The translations under genes and the position numbers were made by a program. 64,000 nucleotides of DNA from Escherichia phage vB_EcoP_PhAPEC7. The notes beneath the pieces are model-generated. The model made no database searches, was not told the origin of the DNA, and saw only the letters and a program-made list of their open reading frames with translations. This document shows positions 2,552 through 57,989 of this stretch, piece after piece; the stretch's first letter is position 1, and each line of letters starts with the position of its first letter. The stretch lies in the sequence record NC_024790.1; one strand, written 5' to 3'.

Positions 2552-3727
2552 ATGAACCAGATACCTCAGCACACACTTAGTGATGAACAACTCATGCGTG
2601 AGTATGACCGTATTCAGGCGCAGGCATTCCTTGGACGTAGTGCAGCGTTTTTTGGTTCATTGCTGTGTAGTCTTAAGTTCTCATGGAAACGCGAGGACTG
2701 CCCTACTGCATGTACTGACGGGATAGAACTCCATTTCAATCCAGACTTCTTTATCTGGATGTGCCCTGATGCGAGAGAAACAGTGCTAATGCACGAACTC
2801 TGGCATGTGGCATATCTACATGGCATCCGCTGTGGAAGCCGTGACCCGGAAATCTGGAACCAGGCATGTGACCACTTCATTAACCTTCAGTTAGAGGAAG
2901 ATGGATACAAGTTCACTGGTATCGACAAAGGCATTTGCAAAGACCCTCAATATAAAGGTTGGGTCGAAGAAGACATCTACGATGACCTGATGAAGAACCC
3001 TCAGAAAAGGCAGAAGCCGTCAGGGGGTGCTGGAGCAGGTCTTGCTGGCGACATGAAAGCTCCCTCTTCGGGGCAGTCCCAGGGTGCTGTTGTCAACAAC
3101 GTAGTACGTGCAATGCAAAGCCAGAAGATGGCTGGTGGAATGATGCCCGGTAAAGGTGCTGGTCGTATGGAAGAGGTAATTACCCAATTCCTTAAGCCAG
3201 TGGTTCCATGGCAGGAAGTCCTGCTGAACTTCTTTACCGACATTGATGACTCACACTATACGTGGGCCAGACCTAACCGTCGTTTTACTGACATCTATCT
3301 ACCATCTCTGGAAGATGATGAAGGACGCTTACGACACTTAGCTTACTTTGAAGATGTATCTGGTTCCATTAGTAGTGCTGACTCTCTACGTTTTAACTCA
3401 GAGGTTGCCTACGTTAAGAGCCAGTTCAATCCTAAGAAGATGACCCTTATTACCTTCGACGATATTATCCAAGAAGAAATAGACATCACTGAAGAAGATA
3501 CTTTTGAAGAAATTAAGATTACTGGTCGTGGTGGTACAAACCTTGAACCAGTGCGTGAATGGATTATTAAGAATAAGCCAACCGCTGCAATCATATTCTC
3601 CGATATGTATGTTCGTCCAATGGAAGAATTACCATTTGATATCCCTATCATCTGGTGTGTTCTGAATAATCCCAATGCTACCGTACCTTTTGGGGAGGTA
3701 GTTCATATCCCTAAAGGAATGAAATAA
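2552..3727 (+). CDS. VWA domain protein with N-terminal HExxH metallopeptidase-like motif
   Basis: HELWH motif near the N-terminus; MIDAS-like DVSGS motif in the C-terminal half; adjacent to the AAA ATPase. Confidence 0.55.
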   Translation: MNQIPQHTLSDEQLMREYDRIQAQAFLGRSAAFFGSLLCSLKFSWKREDCPTACTDGIELHFNPDFFIWMCPDARETVLMHELWHVAYLHGIRCGSRDPEIWNQACDHFINLQLEEDGYKFTGIDKGICKDPQYKGWVEEDIYDDLMKNPQKRQKPSGGAGAGLAGDMKAPSSGQSQGAVVNNVVRAMQSQKMAGGMMPGKGAGRMEEVITQFLKPVVPWQEVLLNFFTDIDDSHYTWARPNRRFTDIYLPSLEDDEGRLRHLAYFEDVSGSISSADSLRFNSEVAYVKSQFNPKKMTLITFDDIIQEEIDITEEDTFEEIKITGRGGTNLEPVREWIIKNKPTAAIIFSDMYVRPMEELPFDIPIIWCVLNNPNATVPFGEVVHIPKGMK

Positions 3728-4233
3728 TGGTTGTTAATGGTAATTCTCTATACCGTTCATCCCAATTGCTGGATGTTCCGGACCATAAGGTATCGGAACA
3801 TGGCGTAAGCTACGGACTAGGTGAAGCTGGTTATGATATTCGTATTAAGCAAGATATCACCTTCTATCGCTTATTTGGGTTGATTCCAATGGTGAAGACT
3901 GTCGATGCTGGGGTTGTTAAACGCCACTTCGGTAAATTCGCATTGGCTTCGGCAATTGAGAAGTTCAACATGTCTCCGTCCTGTGTAGCTATCGTTCACG
4001 ATAAGTCTACATGGGCAAGACGTGCATTATCAGTGTTCAATACCGTAATAGAACCAGGATGGAAAGGGCATCTTACCCTCGAACTGGTCTATCACGGTCG
4101 TAAGAAACTGCATATCCCGGCAGGTGCTGGGATAGCTCAAGTATTATTTCATCTGGTTCAAGAACCTGCTAATTACAATGGCAAGTATCAGAACCAGGAA
4201 GACAAACCAGTATCTGCTAGACCTTCAAAATAA
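3727..4233 (+). CDS. dCTP deaminase / dUTPase-like protein
   Basis: 168 aa; start overlaps the upstream stop; sequence resembles the dCTP deaminase/dUTPase fold. Not verified by search. Confidence 0.4.
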   Translation: MVVNGNSLYRSSQLLDVPDHKVSEHGVSYGLGEAGYDIRIKQDITFYRLFGLIPMVKTVDAGVVKRHFGKFALASAIEKFNMSPSCVAIVHDKSTWARRALSVFNTVIEPGWKGHLTLELVYHGRKKLHIPAGAGIAQVLFHLVQEPANYNGKYQNQEDKPVSARPSK

Positions 4234-4263: not shown

Positions 4264-4449
4264 ATGTCAGTATTTCAAGTAACTCCTGTTGATAGTACCC
4301 AGCGTAAAACTATTGTTGCAACTAACGTAGTAGACGTAGATGAAACTCCGGCTGGTGCTGTAATTCATCTCATTGATGGGCGAACTATAACTGTAAAAGA
4401 AAGCTACCGTTCGGTACGCGGTTACATTCGCAAAGCTTTAGCTGAGTAA
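4264..4449 (+). CDS. Hypothetical protein
   Basis: 61-aa ORF with RBS-like AGGAAAC upstream. Confidence 0.3.
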   Translation: MSVFQVTPVDSTQRKTIVATNVVDVDETPAGAVIHLIDGRTITVKESYRSVRGYIRKALAE

Positions 4450-4486
4450 GTAGCTGCCTAAATAGCCCAGCATAGTTGGGCTATTT

Positions 4487-4765
4487 GTGAAGAAACTAAC
4501 TCAACCCCACATAGGAACCATCATGGAATCTTTAGCAGCAATCCTTATTCTGTTATTTGCACTAGCTGTATACCTTATCCCTACTATTATTGCTTTTGCA
4601 CGAGGCCATGCCTCTAAGTGGGGCATTGGTGTACTCAATATCGTATTAGGCTGGTCTTTAGTCTTCTGGGTAGTAGCACTGATCTGGTCACTGTCCAACA
4701 AAGGTCAGAACCAAGTTACAAATGTAACTGTTGTTCAAACCAATGGTGGCAGTAAAGCAGAGTAA
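4487..4765 (+). CDS. Small two-pass membrane protein, superinfection-immunity-like
   Basis: Two hydrophobic helices with the motif IIAFARGH...NIVLGWSLVFWVVALIWS, resembling the Imm superinfection-immunity family. Confidence 0.4.
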   Translation: MKKLTQPHIGTIMESLAAILILLFALAVYLIPTIIAFARGHASKWGIGVLNIVLGWSLVFWVVALIWSLSNKGQNQVTNVTVVQTNGGSKAE

Positions 4766-4840
4766 CTAACTTAAGCATCATTGCATAGTGGTGCTTGTGG
4801 AAGTTACTTCCAGCTCATTGCTTATCCATCTCCTAATCCA

Positions 4841-7161: not shown

Positions 7162-7480
7162 TCCTGAAGTTATTCATAGTAAAACTGGTAAGGCTGTTCC
7201 ACTTAGCGATATTGCAGTTACTGGTGATATTGCTGCTTGTCCGGCTAACATCGCTTCCCTGTGTATGTGCATTGCTGCACTAGCAGAGGAACGTAAATTA
7301 TGGCTGGAACCAAGCAAAGAGATGATTCAGGCTGGTTTGGCAGAAGTACAAAGAACCGTAGACCAGTGGCATGAAGAGTCATTCGCTGGCTTATGTATGC
7401 CAGAAGATTTAACTGATGATATGGCATCAGATATGGCTGTATTCGTCCTTCAAGCAATGGCAGGTAAACGCAATGGCTAA
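7154..7480 (+). CDS. Hypothetical protein
   Basis: 108-aa ORF, overlapping starts and stops. Confidence 0.3.
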   Translation: MINPEVIHSKTGKAVPLSDIAVTGDIAACPANIASLCMCIAALAEERKLWLEPSKEMIQAGLAEVQRTVDQWHEESFAGLCMPEDLTDDMASDMAVFVLQAMAGKRNG

Positions 7481-15058: not shown

Positions 15059-16729
15059 ATGCGTTACATCACCTCTCAGGATACTGGTAAGTATCCTATT
15101 GCTATCCTCGGTCATCAAATCCGAAGGGAGGAGATGATTAAAACCTACCTGCTGCCTTATGACCTAAGCATGGAAGATTTCATCTTCCTTGAACTTCATT
15201 CTGCCCCCGGCAAGAAGAAAACTCCTGCAAGGGAGATTAAGGAGTTCATTCAGCAGGAACTGCAACAAGTACTGGATGATGCAGAGACTCAGTACATTAT
15301 CTGTACCGATTCTGATTACTTTAAAATACTGACTAAAGAAGCTAAAGCAGAGGCTAACCTCGGCTATGTTTGTGACTCAGTATGGGGTAAGCAGAAGGTT
15401 ATCTATACACCTAGCTACAGACAGGTCTTTTATGATCCACCTGTAGTGAAAGCTAAGATTGCTCAGGGTATGGATGCATTACTTAACCACATTCGTGGGC
15501 AGTATGCTGAACCAGGACAGGGAATCATTGAGTTTGAAGCCTATCCGGATACACCAGAAAAGATTAAAGCCTGGCTAGACCAGTTGCTTGAGATGAATAA
15601 GCCTCTGGCTATAGACATCGAATCATTCGGTTTAAAGCACTATAACGCTGGTATAGGGACGATTACGTTCTGTTGGAGTAAGACACAAGGTATAGCCTTT
15701 AATGTGGACTACGAGCCAATTAAGGGGGCTACTGAAGCACCCTATGGGCGTATCAACAGGAATGATGTTGTTCGTAACCTGTTACGTGAGTTCTTCATTA
15801 AGTACACTCAACGGCAGATGTATCACAACATTAGCTATGACGTGTACGTGCTTATCTATCAGTTATTCATGGATAACCTGATTGATACGGAAGGCTTACT
15901 GCACGGCATGGAAATCATGCTACGTAATTGGGACTGTACTAAGTTAATTACCTATCTGGCTACTAACAGCTGTGCCGGTAATCACCTTAGTCTGAAAGAA
16001 CAGGCTCAGGAATATGCTGGTAACTATGCTCAGGATGACATTAAAGACATTCGTCTTATTCCTAATGAGCAACTGTTACGCTACAACCTCATTGATGGTT
16101 TGTGTACGTGGTACACCTACGAGAAGCACTGGGATACTCTCATTGCTGATGACCAATTAGATGTTTACAACAATATCTTTAAACCAGCCTGTGAAGACAT
16201 TATTCAGATGCAGTTAACCGGTATGCCCATGAATATGGAAACCGTTAACCAAGTAGCTGAGGAGATGGAAACTGACAGGAACCAGGCTCTGAAAACTATT
16301 CGTGAGTCTAAGCTCATGAAGAACTTCACCCTGATGCTTCGTCAGGAATGGGTAGACGATAAGAATGCTAAGCTAAAGAAGAAGCAAGTAACACTGGCTG
16401 ATTGTGACATAGTGTTTAATCCTAATTCAGGGCCACAATTACAGAAACTGTTATTTGATTACATTGGCTTACCGGTTCTTGGTCTTACTAAGAGCAAGCA
16501 ACCTGCTACTGACGGAGACACTATTAAAGCACTGCGTACACATACGCAGAGTGAAGATGTTAAGGAACTGCTCAATGCACTTATCGACTATAAACTCGTG
16601 GATAAGATTATCACTAGTTTTATACCAGCTTTCAGGAATGCCCAGCCGGGGCCGGATGGCTGGCACTACCTATTCGGCAACCTCAATCTTGGAGGCACAG
16701 TCTCCGGTAGGCTATCGGCTTCAGAGCCT
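15059..16729 (+). CDS. DNA polymerase I (family A), exon 1 with 3-5 exonuclease domain
   Basis: Exo I LAIDIESFG and Exo II YHNISYDVYVL motifs; ends inside the conserved GRLSASEP|NLQTIP motif. The computed ORF runs on into intron sequence to a stop at 16750. Confidence 0.85.
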
Positions 16730-17435
16730 AAAATAAATTGGGCTATTTAAACCATGTGAATTCAGGGGAAACCCAGACCGGGCAATCCTGAGCCAAATCA
16801 ACCATACCTGCCTTAGGAGGCACATGATGGATATCAAGAATCTGTACGAGAATACTGACCTATCTCAAGCAGAAATATCAAAGCGTTTGGGTATTAATTA
16901 CAAAAAAGTCTCTAAATATATTAGGGAGAACTACAGTAAAGAATACCGCCAAAGCAGAAATGCAAAGTCTTACCGACGCTCCAAGCTGGGGAAAAATAAC
17001 CCCATGCTCGGTAAATTCGGCAAAGACCATCACAACTACAAAGGTTTAGTATCCGATAGTAAGGGCTACTTAATGGTACTTAAACCCGATTGGTATACTG
17101 CACGCAAAGGTAGCAAACATGTTTTTGCTCACCATGTAGTGGTATGTGAGGCACTTAATATCAGTGAAATACCTAAGGGCTGGTGTGTGCACCATTGTGA
17201 TGAAAATCCATACAACAACGACTTTGATAATCTTGTATTGCTAAGTGTTCCTGACCACGCTCGGTTACACTCAGCATTGAAAGGTGCAACGACTATCTCG
17301 AAAGAGAGTACACTCATGTGGGTGGAAGCGCATGGCACGCCTTACTATCTGGCGTGATGATATAGTCTGCTCTGCATAGGAATATGCAGCAGTCGAAAGA
17401 CGGGCATGGATTAACGACCCATGCTGAACAACAGG
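16730..17435 (+). mobile_element. Group I intron in the DNA polymerase gene, carrying an HNH homing endonuclease gene
   Basis: 5-prime exon ends in U (..GAGCCU); internal guide GGGCU can pair with it. P/Q-like core elements (TGAATTCAGGGGAAACCC, GGGCAATCCTGAGCC) at 16755-16795, R-like AAGGTGCAACGACTATC at about 17281 and S-like GATATAGTC at about 17359. Intron ends in G at 17435; joining the exons restores GRLSASEP-NLQTIPSGSKY in frame. Confidence 0.75.
16824..17357 (+). CDS. HNH homing endonuclease (intron-encoded)
   Basis: Own RBS AGGAGG; HNH motif HHVVVCEALNISEIPKGWCVHHCDENPYNNDFDNLVLLSVPDHARLH; N-terminal HTH-like segment. The 3-prime coding end overlaps the intron R-like element. Confidence 0.75.
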   Translation: MMDIKNLYENTDLSQAEISKRLGINYKKVSKYIRENYSKEYRQSRNAKSYRRSKLGKNNPMLGKFGKDHHNYKGLVSDSKGYLMVLKPDWYTARKGSKHVFAHHVVVCEALNISEIPKGWCVHHCDENPYNNDFDNLVLLSVPDHARLHSALKGATTISKESTLMWVEAHGTPYYLA

Positions 17436-18344
17436 AATCTACAAACAATTCCATCCGGTTCTAAATATGCCAAGAAGATTAAGAAATGCTTCGAAGCCCC
17501 ACCTGGCTGGGTATTTTGCGGTTTGGACTTCGCCTCGCTGGAAGACAGAATATCTGCATTGACTACTAAAGACCCCCAGAAACTTAAGGTATATACCGAT
17601 GGTTACGATGGTCATAGTCTTCGTGCGTATGCTTACTTTGGTGAGCAGATGCCAGACATTGTAGACACAGTTGAGTCAATTAATTCTATTCAGACGAAGT
17701 ATAAGCACCTGCGTAGTGATTCTAAAGCCCCAACCTTCTTGCTTACCTATGGTGGTACGTATATGGGCTTGATGAAAAACTGTGGCTTCTCAGAAGAGAA
17801 AGCTAAAACAACAGAGAAACGTTATCACGATCTCTATGTAGTTAGTGATATGTGGGTTCAGGCTAAGCTAGATGAAGCTGCCAAGACTGGTTATGTAACT
17901 GCTGCATTTGGTTTGAGAGTGCGTACTCCTTTACTGGCTCAGGTATTACGTGGGACATGTAAGACTCCATATGAAGCAGAAGCTGAAGGTAGAACTGCTG
18001 GCAATGCTTTAGGGCAAAGCTGGTGTCTATTGAATAACCGTGCTGGTTCAGAGTTTATGCGTAAAGTCAGAGCCAGTGAGTTCAGGTTAGATATACGCCC
18101 TAGTATTCACATTCATGATGCTCAATACTTCATGATTCGTGACAACATGGATACCTTGCAGTACACGAACAAGCATTTGGTTGAAGCCGTTAACTGGCAA
18201 GACCATCCTGATATTGCTCATCCAGAAGTTGGTTTGGGTGGGGAACTATCCTTGTTTTACCCAACGTGGGCTAACGAGATTGAGATTCCAAATCACGCTA
18301 CCCCAGAAGAAGTTAATCAAATAATTCAAAAGGCATTCGCATGA
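17436..18344 (+). CDS. DNA polymerase I (family A), exon 2 with polymerase motifs A, B and C
   Basis: Motif A DFASLEDR, motif B KAPTFLLTYGGTYMG, motif C HIHDA. The computed ORF 17421..18344 starts a few codons upstream in intron sequence. Confidence 0.85.
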   Translation, partial: NLQTIPSGSKYAKKIKKCFEAPPGWVFCGLDFASLEDRISALTTKDPQKLKVYTDGYDGHSLRAYAYFGEQMPDIVDTVESINSIQTKYKHLRSDSKAPTFLLTYGGTYMGLMKNCGFSEEKAKTTEKRYHDLYVVSDMWVQAKLDEAAKTGYVTAAFGLRVRTPLLAQVLRGTCKTPYEAEAEGRTAGNALGQSWCLLNNRAGSEFMRKVRASEFRLDIRPSIHIHDAQYFMIRDNMDTLQYTNKHLVEAVNWQDHPDIAHPEVGLGGELSLFYPTWANEIEIPNHATPEEVNQIIQKAFA

Positions 18345-22299: not shown

Positions 22300-22632
22300 A
22301 TGTCCGAAGAAATCTCCAACGATATGAACACTCAGCTAATCCTGATTGCAGGATTCTCAGCTAGTGGTAAATCAGCATCACTGCGTAATATCCGGAACCA
22401 GGAACGCTGGCTGTATCTGAATACAGAAGCGGGTAAACGTCTACCTTTCCGTAATAAGTTCAACACCTACAATATCGAAGACCCATACCAGATTTGGGAA
22501 GCATTCGATGTTGCATCTCCTGGTGGTGAAATGGCAGACGATGTTGATGGCATCATTATCGACTCTGCTACCTTCATGATGGACATGCTGGAATCCCAGT
22601 ATGTATTACCATCTGCTAATACCCAAAAGGCT
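22300..22632 (+). CDS. RecA-like (AAA_24/Sak4-type) ATPase, exon 1
   Basis: Walker A GFSASGKSAS. Exon is exactly 111 codons and ends in U (..AAGGCU), which can pair with an internal guide GGCC 10 nt into the intron. Confidence 0.55.
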
Positions 22633-23404
22633 TAACTACTAAGGCCCGTTAGTCAGTAATGATTAATGATAACTGATTGAATTCAGGGAAACCCCTAACG
22701 TAAAGACGAGGGCAATCCTGAGCCAAGACTTAATCTTTCTCCGGTTTTTATTAACGGAGTTACAAACATGAGTAAGAAAAGATTCGGTAATGAATTACAT
22801 CCTCTGTATTACACATGGTTAACCATTAAACAGAGATGTGACAACCCTAAGCACGCTAGTTATAAAAACTATGGGGCTAGGGGGATAACTAGAGCAGAAG
22901 AGTTCTCTGACTTCAAAGTGTTTGCTGCCTATCTAGAATCATTAGATGGTTACGCAGACAGGGAGAGACTGGGTCTTACTTTAGATAGAATAGGTGGTTC
23001 ACTTGGCTATGTGCCAGGAAATCTGAGATAGGCAACTAGAACAACTCAGACCATTAATTCCAGAAAAAGAAGAACCAGTAAAGCTACCTACTTAGGGATA
23101 GGTTTAAACACCACTAAGAAAAAATGGTCAGCAAGAATCTGCAACGGTAATGAAAGAATCTTTGTAGGTAATTTTGATTCCGAGATTGAAGCTCTGAAAG
23201 CTAGAAATGCCTACATTATTGAGCATGGTTTACCTCATGCCATTCAAAAGATTAAGTAAGGTGCAACGACTATCCAGTAATGGAGTAGGGCAGAAGCTAA
23301 TGCTGCTCGAAGCGGTCAGCATCCTATCGTAATTAACGAGGATGAAGATATAGTCTGGACTGCATGGAAACATGCAGATGCAGGTAATGCTGCTGGGAGT
23401 GTAG
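22633..23404 (+). mobile_element. Group I intron in the ATPase gene, carrying a degenerate homing endonuclease gene
   Basis: Shares core elements with the polymerase intron: TTGAATTCAGGGAAACCC and GGGCAATCCTGAGCCAA (22676-22728), AAGGTGCAACGACTATC (about 23259-23277), GATATAGTCTGG plus a CTGCATGG..ATGCAG hairpin (about 23348-23380). Ends in G at 23404 just before exon 2. Boundaries inferred by analogy, plus or minus a few nt. Confidence 0.65.
22768..23258 (+). pseudogene. Homing endonuclease with AP2-like DNA-binding domain, interrupted by an in-frame TAG
   Basis: RBS GGAG then ATG at 22768. N-terminal half YYTWLTIKQRCDNPKHASYKNYGARGI...LDRIGGSLGYVPGNLR. TAG at 23029-23031 falls where related endonucleases have Trp. 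Frame then continues through an AP2-like segment (YLGIGLNTTKKKWSARICNGNERIFVGNFDSEIEALKARNAYIIEHG) to TAA at 23256-23258. Confidence 0.5.
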
Positions 23405-23848
23405 TTGCGTACACTCTTGAACGTATCGTGGGGAGACTTTGCACAGTTCTTTAAAGTACTGCTGCAACAGAAAGTCGTTAAGTTTGGTAAGCCGGTAATC
23501 ATTACTGCCCATGCCAAAGATGAACTCGACGAAGCTGCTGGTGTAATGAAAACATTCATCCCGGTCAAGGGTTCACTGAAGAACAATGGCCTTGAGGCTT
23601 ACTTTTCTACAGTGGTTTACGCAGAACGTGTAGACATTAAAGAACTGGAGAAGTACGGCAACAAGATGCTTGATATTACGGAAGAAGAACGTGACTTAGG
23701 CTATAAGCACGTATTCCAGACACGTCCAACCAAGAAGTCTGTTGGTAAACGTCTTCGCTCACCAATGGGTATGTTCGATAAGTCTCAGACTTACATTGAT
23801 AATGATGCCCAAAAACTCTTAGACCATCTGGCTGAATACTACGCTTAA
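23405..23848 (+). CDS. RecA-like (AAA_24/Sak4-type) ATPase, exon 2
   Basis: Frame is open immediately after the intron terminal G; preceded in frame by TAG at 23402-23404, so it cannot extend upstream. Spliced product would be about 259 aa. Confidence 0.5.
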   Translation: MRTLLNVSWGDFAQFFKVLLQQKVVKFGKPVIITAHAKDELDEAAGVMKTFIPVKGSLKNNGLEAYFSTVVYAERVDIKELEKYGNKMLDITEEERDLGYKHVFQTRPTKKSVGKRLRSPMGMFDKSQTYIDNDAQKLLDHLAEYYA

Positions 23849-27113: not shown

Positions 27114-27307
27114 CCTGAAGTCGCCAGGTACTTATGGCAAACGGGTAGTAACGAACTAGTCATTCGTCAAACGCCCACCCAATTATGAGTCAGCAAGAAC
27201 GCCTTCACTTAAACTTAAACAAAAAAGCTTAACGCAATGATTATGTAGGGGTATGTAAGGATTGCGAAGAAGGAGCCAGTTAGAGCCTGGCATGACTCAC
27301 CTATTAT

Positions 27308-27381
27308 GTCCGCTTAGCTTAGACTGGGAAAGCAACCGACTAATAATCGGAAGGTCACTGGTTCAAATCCAGTAGTGGACA
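27308..27381 (+). tRNA. tRNA, anticodon AAT (formally Ile); 74 nt, CCA not encoded
   Basis: Manual cloverleaf: acceptor GTCCGCT/AGTGGAC (one G-U), U8, D-stem GCTT/AAGC with G18G19, anticodon stem CCGA/TCGG with loop CTAATAA (U33, A37), T-stem ACTGG/CCAGT with loop TTCAAAT, discriminator A. Confidence 0.6.
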
Positions 27382-27840
27382 CCCATTCAGCAGTAACATA
27401 GTCCTGATTGCATAGCACTCTAAAGACAACACTGGTAAGACAGTCCAGTGGCTGCTAATGTATTGTTATTCCCCTCGACGGGAATTTCGCTGGAGAATAG
27501 GAACTACTTAAATCCTAGCCTGAGTATTGCAATATGTGACTATCAATCACGAGAGACGGGACGACCAGACCCCTGAAGCTGGCAATATTGCATATTCATA
27601 CAAGCCTCCCAGCTATGGGTAAATAGTACTAAGTCCCTCAGAGCCGTCACTCTGGGGGACTTTTTTATTTGAGCATTAATAATTGGATAATCAATATGAT
27701 TGATCTAATCTTAACCCCGTATGCCTATGAGGTAACGGATAACCGAGGATGTAAGTCTTTGGTATTTGCAGGTAGCGTAGCCTATAACAACGCAGTTATG
27801 TTTAAGTACAAACTCAAACCACTCTATGAGGCTAATAATG

Positions 27841-28218
27841 GCAACAGTAAGTAAAGAATCAATCGAAGATAAGATTAAGAGCGTCTACTATTTCAATGGT
27901 GCTGATGCAGTAAAGTCTGCATTCGTTGACCCTTCTGCACTCCCGGCAGACGATCTGGCTAACCTGGGCCTGGTAACCTACTGTATTATCATCCTGGAAA
28001 ACGGCTTCAAAGTTGAAGGCGTATCTGCCTGTGTTGACCCAACCATCTATGATGAGTGGAAAGGCCGTCAGTATGCATATGAAAATGCATTCGATAAGAT
28101 TTGGGAAATGGAGGGTTACCTCCTACGTCAGGCATTACATGAGAAAGAGGAGACTGCTAAGGCTCTGGCTTCCTTTGCAGAAAACAACACCTGTGATGGT
28201 GGTGGTTGCACCATTTAA
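27841..28218 (+). CDS. Small phage protein of unknown function (gp49-family-like assignment is a guess)
   Basis: ATG at 27841; position immediately upstream of the vRNAP block. Confidence 0.35.
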   Translation, partial: ATVSKESIEDKIKSVYYFNGADAVKSAFVDPSALPADDLANLGLVTYCIIILENGFKVEGVSACVDPTIYDEWKGRQYAYENAFDKIWEMEGYLLRQALHEKEETAKALASFAENNTCDGGGCTI

Positions 28219-28309: not shown

Positions 28310-28825
28310 GTGAGGGCTTTATCATTTGAGGTAGTTATGTCAGAAGAAATTAAAGTTCACTTCACCAACAACATTGGAACCAAGTGTGTAAATAGATTCC
28401 GGATTAACAAGGAAACATATTGCAAACTACGTGGCTGGGATGTGCCTGCTAATGAAGACCCATTAGAAGTAGGTTACTTAGTAGTATACCCAGATTCTAA
28501 ACCTAACCATGAGCATTTCCGTGGTTATATTAGCTGGTTACCAAGGGCTGCATTTGAAGCTGCATATTGTGATGTAGATAAGGGTTGTACTTTTGGTCAC
28601 GCCGTAGAGCTTCTCAAAGCAGGCTTCAAACTAGCCCGTAAAGGTTGGAACGGTAAGGGAATGTATATCACCTTAGTAACCGGTGAAAATTGGGCTATAG
28701 ATAAACATGAGAATACTGTTTGTGAGAAACGGGATTGGCTGGGTATTAAGACCGTTGATAACCAATTTATGCCATGGGTTCCATCCCAATCGGATGTATT
28801 AGCTGAAGACTGGGTATTAGTCTAG
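28310..28825 (+). CDS. Hypothetical phage protein with DUF2829-like C-terminal segment
   Basis: C-terminal FGHAVELLKAGFKLARKGWNGKGMYITLV...DVLAEDWVLV pattern; unverified. Confidence 0.3.
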   Translation: MRALSFEVVMSEEIKVHFTNNIGTKCVNRFRINKETYCKLRGWDVPANEDPLEVGYLVVYPDSKPNHEHFRGYISWLPRAAFEAAYCDVDKGCTFGHAVELLKAGFKLARKGWNGKGMYITLVTGENWAIDKHENTVCEKRDWLGIKTVDNQFMPWVPSQSDVLAEDWVLV

Positions 28826-34800: not shown

Positions 34801-37800
34801 AGACTTATCGAACTCAACCATCATATCAACAGCAGGTTTCAGATTACCTTCCAGAGCCTTGGTCAACTTTTCAGACATAGCTTCACGGGACATGTTATGT
34901 ACCTTGATGCCTAATGCCTGAGCCAGTCCTAACTGGAAGTCAGAGACTGCTTGGCTGTTTTCATTACTCAAGTCAATAGTAGAGAAGGTTGGCAGAATTG
35001 CTTCACGAACCAGCTTACTGGATTGTGGGTTATTCTTACCTAGCATCTGCATACGACCTACACGGGTCATGTTGTAACCATAGTGAATAGGAGTATCCAG
35101 ACCATTCTCTTGTTCCCGTATCTGGCTGATTACACCAAACAAGGAATCATATGCCATAGACACGGACAGGTTTTTACCCTCCAGTGACTTAGCAGTGTTC
35201 ATATTCAACAGTTCTGGATTAAGAGAACCAGCACCCATCAGTTCCAGAATGTTGTCACGACCTAAAGCTTCATAGAAGTTAACCATCGGCATGTGTACAC
35301 GGAACTCAGTAGCTTGTTCAGCTTTCAGTGCAGCTTTCTGTTCCGGGGTATTTTTAACAGCAGGGTTACGTAACTGAGTTTGAGCCACGGAAGGAATGTC
35401 GTCACCGAAGTACATTTTCTCTTCTGGTTCTAAGAGGACAGCTTCCTCAATAGCAGTAGGGAATTTGTTAATGGCATCATTGTCATCCAGCTTCTCAATG
35501 GTATACAGACCAACAGTCTTATTAGAGTCTGGGTCAATCTCAGACACATCCAGCATAGACTCTTTAACTTCACCCATTTCAATGAGGGAAGACAGAATCT
35601 CTGTAGCCATTGCCATTGGGATACCTTTTGTGTAACCCAGTGGTGCATTAGGATTACGATTCAAACCCCAATAAGATTCAATCTTCTGAGCCAGTGAGTT
35701 AGTAGCTTCGACCAGAGTCTGGGCATTCTCAAACTCAGCCAGAATACCTTCTGGTAACAGAGATGCTTCCACACCAGTAATAGCAGCTACGTCTTTCATG
35801 TCTTTAATGGCAGCATTCTGTGTAGCAGTCAGTCGCCATTGCAGTCCGGCAAGTACAGCAGTCTCTAACAACTGATCATTGAACTTAAAGGTGTCACCAT
35901 CTCGTTCAACGATATTCAGCAATTTGCCACCTACCCAACGGTTAGCTTCAGTACCTTCTGCAAAACGTTTACCAACGTTCTTATTAGCAAGGAACTTAAC
36001 CAGACGTTCAGACAAAGTAGTCTTCAGAGTTTCCCCAAAGTCCATCAAGTCCTGATAACGTTTCATCACATCACTAGTGAGAGCGTTATTTTCTTTTTGA
36101 GTGAATGCCTCAAAGCGAGCAGCAGAAGACAGTGCTTGCTTAATATCAGCCAAAGGAGATTCAGAACCAATGGTACGGGACTTAGGTTCTTCCGGTAGGG
36201 TAAATGCTTTCAGGAACTGGTTCGGTGTCTTTTCATTGTTATAGACAGGGAACACTGTTTCCATTTCTGTTTTAGTTTCAGCTACTTCCTGGATGGTATC
36301 CTCATTAGTGAGGGTAGCTTCTACTGTTTCGGGCTTAGTAGTAGAGACTTCTTCTGCTTTTGGACTAGTCTCCTTAGTAGGAGCAGTCTTATTTTCTACC
36401 ACTGGTTTAGCTTTAGGCTGTACAGTAGTAGTGTCCTCTTGCACTGGTGCAGGAGTTTCATCAACCTGATTCACTGGTTCATTAGTCTGTTGAGACTGAG
36501 TGGCATCAAGACCACCTTGACGGAACTCTTTAACTACCTGGGCAACTGGCTTGTTCAGACGTGAATCCAACGAGGTAACTTTCACATGAGAAACATTAAG
36601 CTCCGGGTAAGCCGTAGCAAGTGCGTTAGCAATATCAGCTACGGTTTTGGCCTCCAGTCCTACTTGCTGGGCAAACTTAACAGACTTGGTATCGTAAGGA
36701 TTGACACCGAGGCCAGTACGACTACGTACCCATTCACGGGAAGGCGAGAGAGCCTGATAATGGACAGACTTATTCTTATCCGCATTCCCCGAAATCAGAT
36801 GCTCATTCAACGCTCCGACCTTATTCTGCATGTGCTGGGCGAACTTCATAAAGTCGCTCAGATAAGCGGAGGCCAAATCGAAGTTACCAGAGTTATACGC
36901 AGAACGAATGCGTTTCGCATGTTGCAACGCAGAGTACTGTCCTTCATTAGAACGAGACTCATCGGTTTTAATCTGTTTACTAACAATGTCCTGAGGACGT
37001 AAGCCCAGTTCTTCTGCTTTAGCGTCGAACTCACGTGCACCCTGTAACAAGGCAGCAGCAGATTGCAGGGCAGCACGTTGACGATTCCCTAATGTAATCT
37101 TACCTTCACTTGCATGTTTAAGAACCATGTTCACTGAATCTGCATCCAGTACTTCTGGAGACACATCAGCAGCCATAGCAATGTTGTTTGCTTGGGCTTG
37201 GTTAGCTTCTTCAGTAGCTTTCAGTTTACCTGCCTCAGCCTGTTCCTGAATCATGGAATGGATAGCACGGAATGCACGAAGTACTTTAGGGGTATTCTGT
37301 ACGTTAGCCATCAGGCCGGAGAACTGGTCTACGATTGCAGCAGCAGGGGAACCTTGTTCCAGATTAGCCAGAGCACCTGGGTCACGGTTAATGAAGTTAT
37401 CCATAGACATGATGTTGTCATACATCTGAATTGCAGCTTCCATTTGAACGTTAGGGTCTTCGGCAGTATTAACCAAGTCAGCCATCTTCTGAATAGCTTC
37501 TACACGGTTAGTGGAACCAGAAACAGCTTCACGGATTACTGGGTTAACTTGTTCCAATTCTACTGGGTCAAACTTCATTGCCTGAGTTAAATCAGCAGCA
37601 TACTGGGTAGCAGCAGCTTTCTCTTCTGGAGTGATATCCATTGCATCTACTGCTTCTTGTACAGTTGCTTGTGCTTGCTCTGCTTGAGCAGCAGCTTCCT
37701 GTGCAGCAGCATTAACCGTAGCATCAGCTACAGGGGATGCTTGTTCATTACGCTTAGCAACTTCTTCACCACGTTGAACCAGGATGTTAGTAAGGGGAGA

Positions 37801-55244: not shown

Positions 55245-57989
55245 TTAACGCTCTGCAAAAATAGTAATACCCTCTAAATCGCCACCATTCGCTGTAGTAT
55301 CAGCAGAAGCTGTAGCTCGTACATCAATAACCTGACCAGCATTAAGATTACCAAGGAATACACGAACAGTTGCAGAAATTGCATTAGGAGCACCAAGTGT
55401 CTTAACTGCACTATCTACATATACATCTAACTGTACGTTGCCTGCTGCTACGCGAATGTTAGCTAATACCTCTACATCTCTTAGACCACCAGCAGGAACA
55501 GTGAAACGACCTGCTGAATAATTAGAAGTCCAACGATACATGTCATCAGACGTCTGTGGTGTAACGTAGTTAACTACACCTGGTGAAGTACCAATTGCCT
55601 GCCCATTACTGTTATACGCACGATACACAGCACGACGTGGGAACAGAAGAATACCTCCGGATACTGCCTGTAAACCGGGTACAAACTGCCAACCAAATCC
55701 AGATGGGTCATAGTCAACAAGGGTATTAGCACCAGCAACGATATTTGCTTGGTTACGAACAACCCCACAATAAAGTTGAATATCTTTGGTAGTAATTTTA
55801 CCTGCATACTCAGATGCAGAGGAATGAACAGTAATCATCCCACCATTGTTTTGACTATGATACCCACGGATATTAGTAAAGCTTACTCCAGTACGATTAC
55901 TTATTGTAGAGGTAACCTCATCAAGATTAGCAATCATACATAGCTGTGCAGCAGTTTCTACATGGCAGTTAGCAACACCAACGCTACCATAGCTATTACC
56001 ATAGTTATTCTCATCACCATCGGTAATATCCGTTACTGGTTCAACAAGGATAGTAGCACCACTAATATTGTCATTATGCTGTAACTCACCACCAATGAAC
56101 ATGACATTTGCACCCTTGGTATGCAGGGTGTACTGAGTAGCTACAGACAGTCCACCGGGAGCACCAGATACAGCATTAAATCCAATGAAGTTGATATAAG
56201 TCTGATTACCAATTGCACGGATAGCACACGGAGTCCCAACAGTATAACCACCATGGAAAGTCAGTTCTGAAATCAATGCATGAGGGTAGGCAATATCACC
56301 AAGAGTAATACCTGTTAATGCATCAGATGCACAAATACCATAAAAATCACAGAAGCTGAATCCATTTGAGTTATCAGACCAGAACTTAAATGCACTCTTA
56401 ATACCAATTTTGCTTTGTCCTGATACTTCTAATCGACCATACGTTCTAACACCCTGTGCGTTACGAATACCAAATATGTAGTCACCGGTATCATAAGTAG
56501 GGTAGATATAACATTGAGCATAAATACTTAATCCAGTCAGATTACTAAACTGAATTGGGGCACTTGTTTTAAAAATGCCTTTAATTTCAGCAGTAGCCCA
56601 GGGAACAGAAGCACATGCATCAGCCCATGCCTGTAAAGCGGCATATGAGTCAACATTACCAGTAGGGTCAGCACCAAAGTCTGCAACAGCATCCAATGTA
56701 CGAGCATATCTGGCTGAGAGAGTATTTATTGCACTCCCGATAACTCCTGCTTTTTTGTACCTGATTAAATCAAAACCAGTATCACTTAGTAAGCTTGCTT
56801 TGAATGCATCAAGTGAAGCGTTAGCTGAATTGATGGCATCATTGCCTGAAATGATATCAATCAAATCAACATTAACATTCCCAGGAGAATAGGTTAACTG
56901 ACCATTGGATACAGCGTTAATGTAAACATTGGTGGGTAAGATAGGTAATCCATAGATTCGCTGAGTAACTACATCAAAAATCACCTTCTTACTATTAAGT
57001 ACTTGAGTAGTATCCGTACTGAGGATTACCTCAGAATCTTTTACGTTAGCTGAGCGAGCCACTTCCTGAATAGTATGGTCTACTATTTCAAGTATCTTAG
57101 CTTCACCACCCAACTGAACAATCAGACAGTCATTGGTTGCCAATGGTTCGGTAAGAATGATTCGGTTATTATCTGAGTCAATAGTATAAGAATTATTAGT
57201 TAACCCTTTGTAGAAACGTAAACCATTCTTATATACAGCAGGCACAGACTGGAAGGTATATGGAATATCAATTACCTGTTCTCCACCAACAGCAGCACCT
57301 TGGTTATACAACCAGTTAATGGTTACCCAATCAGAAACATTAGGATTATCCGGAGTTGCGGGAACACCGGTACGCATAACTACAACAAAGTCGCCAGGTT
57401 CCAGTGGGGTAGTGAAGCTAACCTCAAAAGCTACCGGGTCATACTCAAAGTCATATCCTTCAGTCTGCCAATCACCATTAACAATCATGAATGGTGCACC
57501 AGCCGTTTCATCCGGGATACGAATGGTAGTCTCGCCACCATTAGCAGAACCAGAGTTATAAATCCACGGGATGTATCCACCATCACTAGTAGACTCACCA
57601 CCACCAGATGAACCAGATGTAGCTACCTTAACCCAAGAACCAGTTGCAGCGATATCGTCAGGTAGAATACCGGTACGGTCACCCTCTACATACAGGTAGT
57701 CAGTAACACGACGGTCACCAGCAGGGGTCTTATCATAGATACGAGCAAAGGTAGCCTTAGTAGTTAACGCCTTAAGCTCTGCTTCAGACTGTACACCAAG
57801 AACCATTCCATATTGGTTCAGGAAATCATAAATAAGTTTCAGGTTACCTAAGTTACAGTAGACAGTACGAACCACGTGGTAAGCATTACCAAGTAATGCA
57901 TCTACCATTGGGTCATTGGAACTATTCTGGCAGTAAGGATTGGTCCAATCCTGATTTGCATCGAAGGGGGTATGTGCGTTCATCGCCAT
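55245..57989 (-). CDS. Tail fiber / receptor-binding protein
   Basis: 914 aa, Gly/Asn/Thr-rich; tail module position. Confidence 0.4.
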   Translation of the reverse strand: MAMNAHTPFDANQDWTNPYCQNSSNDPMVDALLGNAYHVVRTVYCNLGNLKLIYDFLNQYGMVLGVQSEAELKALTTKATFARIYDKTPAGDRRVTDYLYVEGDRTGILPDDIAATGSWVKVATSGSSGGGESTSDGGYIPWIYNSGSANGGETTIRIPDETAGAPFMIVNGDWQTEGYDFEYDPVAFEVSFTTPLEPGDFVVVMRTGVPATPDNPNVSDWVTINWLYNQGAAVGGEQVIDIPYTFQSVPAVYKNGLRFYKGLTNNSYTIDSDNNRIILTEPLATNDCLIVQLGGEAKILEIVDHTIQEVARSANVKDSEVILSTDTTQVLNSKKVIFDVVTQRIYGLPILPTNVYINAVSNGQLTYSPGNVNVDLIDIISGNDAINSANASLDAFKASLLSDTGFDLIRYKKAGVIGSAINTLSARYARTLDAVADFGADPTGNVDSYAALQAWADACASVPWATAEIKGIFKTSAPIQFSNLTGLSIYAQCYIYPTYDTGDYIFGIRNAQGVRTYGRLEVSGQSKIGIKSAFKFWSDNSNGFSFCDFYGICASDALTGITLGDIAYPHALISELTFHGGYTVGTPCAIRAIGNQTYINFIGFNAVSGAPGGLSVATQYTLHTKGANVMFIGGELQHNDNISGATILVEPVTDITDGDENNYGNSYGSVGVANCHVETAAQLCMIANLDEVTSTISNRTGVSFTNIRGYHSQNNGGMITVHSSASEYAGKITTKDIQLYCGVVRNQANIVAGANTLVDYDPSGFGWQFVPGLQAVSGGILLFPRRAVYRAYNSNGQAIGTSPGVVNYVTPQTSDDMYRWTSNYSAGRFTVPAGGLRDVEVLANIRVAAGNVQLDVYVDSAVKTLGAPNAISATVRVFLGNLNAGQVIDVRATASADTTANGGDLEGITIFAER

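Follow-up and report, generated by a model that had tools for sequence, protein, structure and literature searches.

Why does a phage endonuclease gene carry a stop codon with a whole DNA-binding domain still encoded behind it? In a stretch of 64 000 nucleotides from Escherichia phage vB_EcoP_PhAPEC7 (NC_024790.1; called the window below, its first base being the equivalent of PhAPEC5 position 7297), an earlier note made from the sequence alone placed an intron-encoded homing endonuclease at 22768–23258, interrupted by an in-frame amber codon at a conserved Trp position. It offered three readings: a recently inactivated gene, a sequencing error, or a gene expressed by amber read-through. We consider the first of these probable, a real G-to-A change having recently turned W88 into amber. 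The finding is most likely an ordinary one, following the usual decay route of such genes and not involving read-through of a stop codon.

The endonuclease ORF starts at ATG 22768 and runs for 87 codons before TAG takes the place of codon 88. Past the TAG the same frame stays open for 75 sense codons (23032–23256) up to TAA 23257–23259, just as the earlier note had described; its start coordinate was right and its end one base short. The whole frame is 163 codons (22768–23259, + strand). Its parts, with the ribosome-binding site, are as follows.

22756–22759, + strand: Shine-Dalgarno sequence GGAG, read from the sequence, 8 nt 5′ of the endonuclease ATG and inside a 5-bp hairpin
22768–23031, + strand: truncated endonuclease ORF, 87 codons plus the amber codon (PHROG 8790, E 6.9e-26; PHROG 374, E 1.8e-20)
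23029–23031, + strand: in-frame amber TAG at the Trp88 position, G to A at 23030; TGG in six related alleles
23032–23259, + strand: untranslated remnant, 75 sense codons plus TAA, covering an alpha helix that bears the invariant Q94 and N97, then a linker and a DNA-binding domain of the AP2 type

The two halves of the ORF belong to one gene. The N-terminal half matches positions 270–341 of the PHROG 374 profile and the C-terminal half positions 343–404; the two matches abut, and the single profile position omitted is the TAG. There is no in-frame start after the TAG from which the remainder could be expressed. GenBank lists the same 87-aa sequence as YP_009056178.1 / AHV82673.1 of phage vB_EcoP_PhAPEC7, labelled ‘restriction endonuclease’. 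The hairpin around GGAG (22739–22743 pairing with 22755–22759) is weak, at −6.8 kcal/mol and z −1.25, and its sequence is invariant among the alleles, offering no evidence of covariation.

The frame lies within an insertion that splits another gene, whose exons and ribozyme parts are these.

22300–22632, + strand: exon 1 of a gp44-like AAA ATPase / Sak4-like ssDNA-annealing gene, 111 codons, ending ...QKA
22633–23428, + strand: group I intron, 796 nt, beginning with TAA right after exon base U22632 and ending with G23428
22633–22735, + strand: 5′ ribozyme part by Rfam alignment, with P1, P2, the P3 5′ strand, P4, P5 and the P6/P6a 5′ strand
23250–23428, + strand: 3′ ribozyme part by Rfam alignment, with the P6a/P6 3′ strand, P7, the P7.1/7.2 insertion, the P3 3′ strand, P8, P9 and the 3′ tail with the terminal G
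23429–23848, + strand: exon 2 of the ATPase gene, 139 codons plus stop

The exon 1 boundary was set by alignment to intronless PhAPEC5. By tblastn, exon 1 is 99.1% identical to residues 1–111 of PhAPEC5 gp51 and exon 2 is 100% identical to residues 111–250. PhAPEC5 and G7C show a gap of exactly 22633–23428, and with these bases removed the two exons give the same 250-aa protein as in PhAPEC5 (99–100% identity). The insertion is missing from most relatives (PhAPEC5, G7C and many others), which have one continuous 250-aa gene. Three sequenced phages carry it, SP5M, Bas96 and PW8, and in Bas96 the ATPase gene is annotated as a two-piece join.

No group I intron passed the gathering threshold in an Rfam scan of the whole window, the RF00028 covariance model being split here by the 514-nt ORF loop. 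The two parts of the intron hit the model separately: the 3′ part (23150–23377) scores 49.5 bits (E 2.4e-11), just below the gathering score of 50, and the 5′ part (22623–22892) scores 30.9 bits (E 8.6e-6). A 5-bp P1 can be read from the sequence (G22629–U22633 with A22642–C22646); it holds the U22632·G22643 wobble at the splice site which, like the terminal G23428, is a mark of group I introns. The ORF occupies the P6a loop, its last 10 nt and the TAA forming the P6a 3′ strand (23250–23257 paired with 22728–22735), which upholds the earlier description of the endonuclease as intron-encoded. Across five alleles the 5′ ribozyme part has one variable base, in PW8, and the window has no private change in either ribozyme part. 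The 3′ part is also 70–80% identical to the intron cores of many other phages. Judged by its sequence, the intron would be expected to splice; splicing has been demonstrated for another intron of G7C-like phages (g16; bioRxiv 10.1101/542787). We found no description in the literature of the intron at 22633–23428 or of the PhAPEC7 allele.

What the amber codon removes depends on how the protein is built. PHROG ‘HNH endonuclease’ families match both halves of the ORF, and a Pfam search gave no HNH or other family for the nuclease domain and a sub-threshold match for AP2. An AlphaFold model of an intact allele (pLDDT 93.9) has a helical N-terminal region, strands at 71–74 and 86–89, a short helix at 91–96, a linker, and an AP2 fold at 111–153. 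The strands and short helix have the beta-beta-alpha-metal arrangement of HNH / His-Me finger endonucleases. The C-terminal part, in which the earlier note had seen an AP2-like segment, is indeed of that kind, combining the sequence match with a helix against which three strands pack as a sheet. Among I-HmuI-type homing endonucleases, AP2 is an established module for binding DNA (PMC5714182). Residue 88 sits in strand beta2 (residues 86–89) with helix 91–96 next, and 22768–23031 covers the two beta strands of the nuclease motif together with the helical region N-terminal to them.

Aligned with the I-HmuI HNH motif ‘VVDHKD...NLRWVT...VEN’, the family profile gives a weak match (E 0.06–0.17), in which the mutated Trp88 falls on the W of ‘NLRW’. 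Two invariant residues, N85 and N97, align with the Asn of ‘NLRW’ and that of ‘VEN’ respectively, and N97 lies downstream of the amber codon. The catalytic His that closes beta1 in I-HmuI (D-H) has its counterpart here in R74, invariant in 92 sequences; this family is therefore a variant beta-beta-alpha nuclease. With I-HmuI and group 2 of the His-Me fingers (HNH_3) it shares a small beta-beta-alpha motif followed by a modular DNA-binding domain, the setting in a phage group I intron, and the motif ‘D-x-x-D...NLRW-x-T...N’, including the Trp that is mutated in the window. It differs in the weakness of the sequence match, in having no Pfam HNH match, and in the replacement of the catalytic His by Arg.

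The endonuclease family is widespread and, with its signature ‘...YKNYGARGI...LDRID..GY.PGNLRWAT...Q..N’, has no Pfam model. An invariant Tyr (Y81) stands beside the invariant Arg at the I-HmuI His site. The best structural match of the family is PacI (PDB 3m7k), to which the modelled protein shows a modest similarity, of fold only. Unlike the intron-encoded, AP2-bearing enzyme of the window, PacI is a free-standing restriction enzyme; it has zinc sites and lacks AP2.

Residue 88 is a conserved Trp, as the earlier note had claimed. Codon 88 is TGG, one base away from TAG, in six of six related alleles: those of phages SP5M, Bas96 and PW8, an IMG/VR contig (L005), Logan contig SRR8960846 (L006) and ENA metagenome contig ERZ1090867 NODE-42 (L009). 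Among 58 aligned homologs the residue is W in 54, F in three and L in one. None of the 58 ends naturally at codon 88, and even the shortest aligned homologs (94 and 100 aa) extend through W-A-T-x-x-Q-x-x-N, so the reading of the window's product as a truncation stands. Q94 and N97, both lost, do not vary across 92 sequences. The only contig recorded with the amber allele is the GenBank genome: an exact look-up of the 87-aa product gave no independent occurrence by gene position and only the GenBank record by sequence, and a scan of viral and of metagenome contigs for TAG or TGG at this codon gave one match each, both TGG.

The age of the change can be judged from the nearest allele, L009. Over the 796 intron bases it differs from the window at two positions, 23030 and a change of its own at 23165, and its ORF (reverse complement of 4304–4795) is intact at 163 aa. 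The flanking exons are less alike, with 14 differences upstream of the intron and 13 downstream, about 3%. With so near an allele still intact, the amber is a single and very recent change that no further decay has followed; it is the only intron change private to the window. D76G, A95T and E144K had looked like extra decay (three nonsynonymous singletons in 57 nt; Fisher p 0.05–0.07) and were rejected, as all three are present in the intact L009.

The exons carry, within window 22609–23455, a trace of how the intron arrived. Those of the window resemble the PhAPEC5 exons apart from the last 22 nt of exon 1, where four synonymous third-position differences are shared with the intron-bearing phages. 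It looks as if recent homing brought the intron into a backbone of the PhAPEC5 type and co-converted a short flank. A near-identical intron in two backbones whose exons are ~3% apart, with short co-converted flanks, is indirect support for site-specific cleavage of the intronless allele, and the endonuclease allele was probably active until very recently.

The gene has also been broken elsewhere. A second nonsense allele, in which Y15 has gone from TAC to TAA, occurs on nine contigs from other assemblies, for example at 1351–1842 of L006 (Logan SRR8960846) and in eight similar places; on it gene callers start a 113-aa product from an internal GTG. Nonsense alleles of this endonuclease gene thus arise and persist, and together with an intact allele only two of 796 bases away the Y15* allele favours recent inactivation among the readings first offered.

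The closeness of L009 also suits an artefact of sequencing, assembly or propagation, in which case the phage would really have TGG at 23029–23031 and an intact endonuclease. L009's own change aside, 23030 is the sole difference from that nearest intact allele, just one contig is on record with the 87-aa product, and with no extra decay beside the stop a consensus error would look exactly alike. Against this, every conserved gene compared in the 64-kb window lacks a stop or broken alignment: all 51 PhAPEC5 genes of at least 100 aa have stop-free counterparts there (tblastn). A random error would have had to hit a single given codon in a dispensable gene of 492 nt, and Y15* shows that real nonsense alleles of the same gene exist. 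Substitution errors in phage consensus sequences are rare and G to A is the commonest spontaneous transition, both of which count against an artefact. That the only broken frame lies in a dispensable selfish gene is what would be expected of a real mutation filtered by selection. We therefore regard an error, which the earlier note had listed among its alternatives, as unlikely and as a poorer account than a real mutation.

The remaining alternative in that note was read-through, by which a suppressor tRNA of host or phage, or leaky termination, would give some full-length enzyme, perhaps limiting a toxic nuclease. The 75 downstream codons are open and unchanged relative to the intact alleles, but so young a mutation would leave the frame open in any case. 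Phages keep their homing endonucleases under tight down-regulation (PMC2988022), and the nuclease ORF in the polymerase insertion of a related phage became mutated on cloning, from which the authors inferred toxicity (bioRxiv 10.1101/542787). The stop itself, however, is not conserved, all related alleles having TGG and none of the 58 homologs a stop at codon 88, and the other disrupted allele uses TAA at another codon, which favours random knockouts over a recoding device. Nor does the RNA around the TAG stand out: folding there (z −0.32), as around the Shine-Dalgarno sequence, gave nothing significant.

A suppressor is equally hard to find. The earlier note had seen no CUA-anticodon tRNA in the window, and this is correct, the sole tRNA being a tRNA-Ile at 27307–27385. 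On the first 40 kb of PhAPEC5, a span that includes the portion absent from the window, ARAGORN gave the same tRNA-Ile only, and the annotation of the last 31 kb of PhAPEC5 lists no tRNA. We also considered that TAG might be unused as a stop in this phage and rejected it, since TAG closes two of 40 long ORFs in the window and is a true stop in one of these, the conserved gp49-like gene at 28337–28825. Read-through is thus unsupported and, in our judgement, very improbable. Slimmer still is the chance that the amber is simply tolerated, slight natural UAG read-through or a suppressor host yielding enough full-length enzyme for homing. If that were true, one nonsense codon would be holding down the output of a toxic intron endonuclease, like a throttle, and would not have killed the enzyme. 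As to the tRNA itself, ARAGORN assigns it the anticodon AAT, which is unusual for bacteria, and it is also present in PhAPEC5.

It could also be asked whether the 87-aa protein has a function of its own, as a non-specific nuclease, a nickase or a regulator, so that the truncation would be adaptive. Its helical N-terminal region and its two beta strands survive, with the invariant residues D73, R74, Y81 and N85 among them, and GenBank does annotate it as a protein. It has nevertheless lost the DNA-binding domain and the invariant residues Q94 and N97, none of the best 120 homologs is as short for a natural reason, and the amber allele has been seen once only. We give this idea hardly any weight, and read-through and another function taken together still make a very unlikely pair.

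Returning to recent inactivation, we propose the following course. The gp44-like ATPase gene of this G7C-like (Gamaleyavirus, N4-like) coliphage carries a mobile group I intron, whose P6a loop holds the frame of a 163-aa homing endonuclease, pairing a PacI/I-HmuI-like beta-beta-alpha nuclease domain with a DNA-binding domain of the AP2 type. One G-to-A transition, at 23030, would have changed Trp88 from TGG to amber, and in an ordinary E. coli host translation would now end after residue 87. The product would be without the alpha helix of the nuclease motif (Q94, N97) and without the entire AP2 domain; with these gone it should have lost specific target binding and most likely cleavage, as the model and the conservation suggest. 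The endonuclease gene would be a fresh pseudogene. The ribozyme and both exons are intact and the ATPase would presumably still be made via splicing; as the ribozyme has no private change and the spliced exons are the same as in PhAPEC5, the phage should be unaffected by the amber and pay no cost. The intron would spread only where a working endonuclease is supplied in trans. This stage would correspond to the degeneration step of the usual homing-endonuclease cycle. Such degeneration has been described (PMC2988022), and among coliphages there is precedent for defunct intron endonucleases, such as I-TevIII of T4, whose version in RB3 is intact (PMC1865063; PMC2790892).

For annotation, the 87-aa ‘restriction endonuclease’ of PhAPEC7 would become a truncated homing-endonuclease pseudogene within a group I intron, and the two ATPase pieces one spliced gene. 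The importance of the locus is small beyond this correction. It would still be a clean natural example of the first step in homing-endonuclease decay, and the TAG and TGG alleles could make a convenient natural pair for work on intron homing in N4-like phages.

I-TevIII of T4 was disabled by a deletion, whereas here there is a single nonsense codon with the remaining frame untouched; the interrupted gene is a gp44-like ATPase and not nrdB, and the DNA-binding domain is AP2 and not zinc fingers. The two loci are alike in that the intron still splits an essential or important gene while its H-N-H endonuclease is disabled, that of T4 being intact in the relative RB3 (PMC1865063; PMC2790892), and the T4 nrdB intron, as would be the case here, moves only with help in trans (PMC2988022). 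With the T4 td intron and I-TevI the present intron shares its subgroup IA-type phage intron structure and an ORF looped out of P6a. A Shine-Dalgarno sequence ~8 nt 5′ of the start within a hairpin is also common to both (PMC2988022), the hairpin here being the weak one noted above. I-TevI differs in being a GIY-YIG enzyme.

Several other features of the genome came to light. A second group I-like intron (16751–17420; RF00028 38 bits, E 6.8e-8) splits the DNA polymerase gene, with exons at 15059–16750 and 17421–18344. Its ORF (16824–17357) codes for a classical HNH endonuclease of 177 aa that is intact and shares 99.4% identity with PhAPEC5 gp44, and one genome therefore holds one intact and one broken intron endonuclease. 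Between its exonuclease and primase genes PhAPEC5 has a free-standing gene, gp49 (27449–28021), annotated ‘putative HNH homing endonuclease’; the window lacks it, its two flanks meeting directly at ~20090. In the virion RNA polymerase gene the window has at 36270–36286 (− strand) ~122 aa fewer, in frame, relative to PhAPEC5 residues 977–1103, through either an insertion in PhAPEC5 or a deletion in the window. The gene at the dCTP deaminase position (3727–4230) is only 45% identical to its PhAPEC5 counterpart, and the tail (spike) protein (56853–57983) matches that of PhAPEC5 over its N-terminal 377 aa only, at 75% identity. These last two differences are module swaps between phages that are otherwise 95–99% identical.
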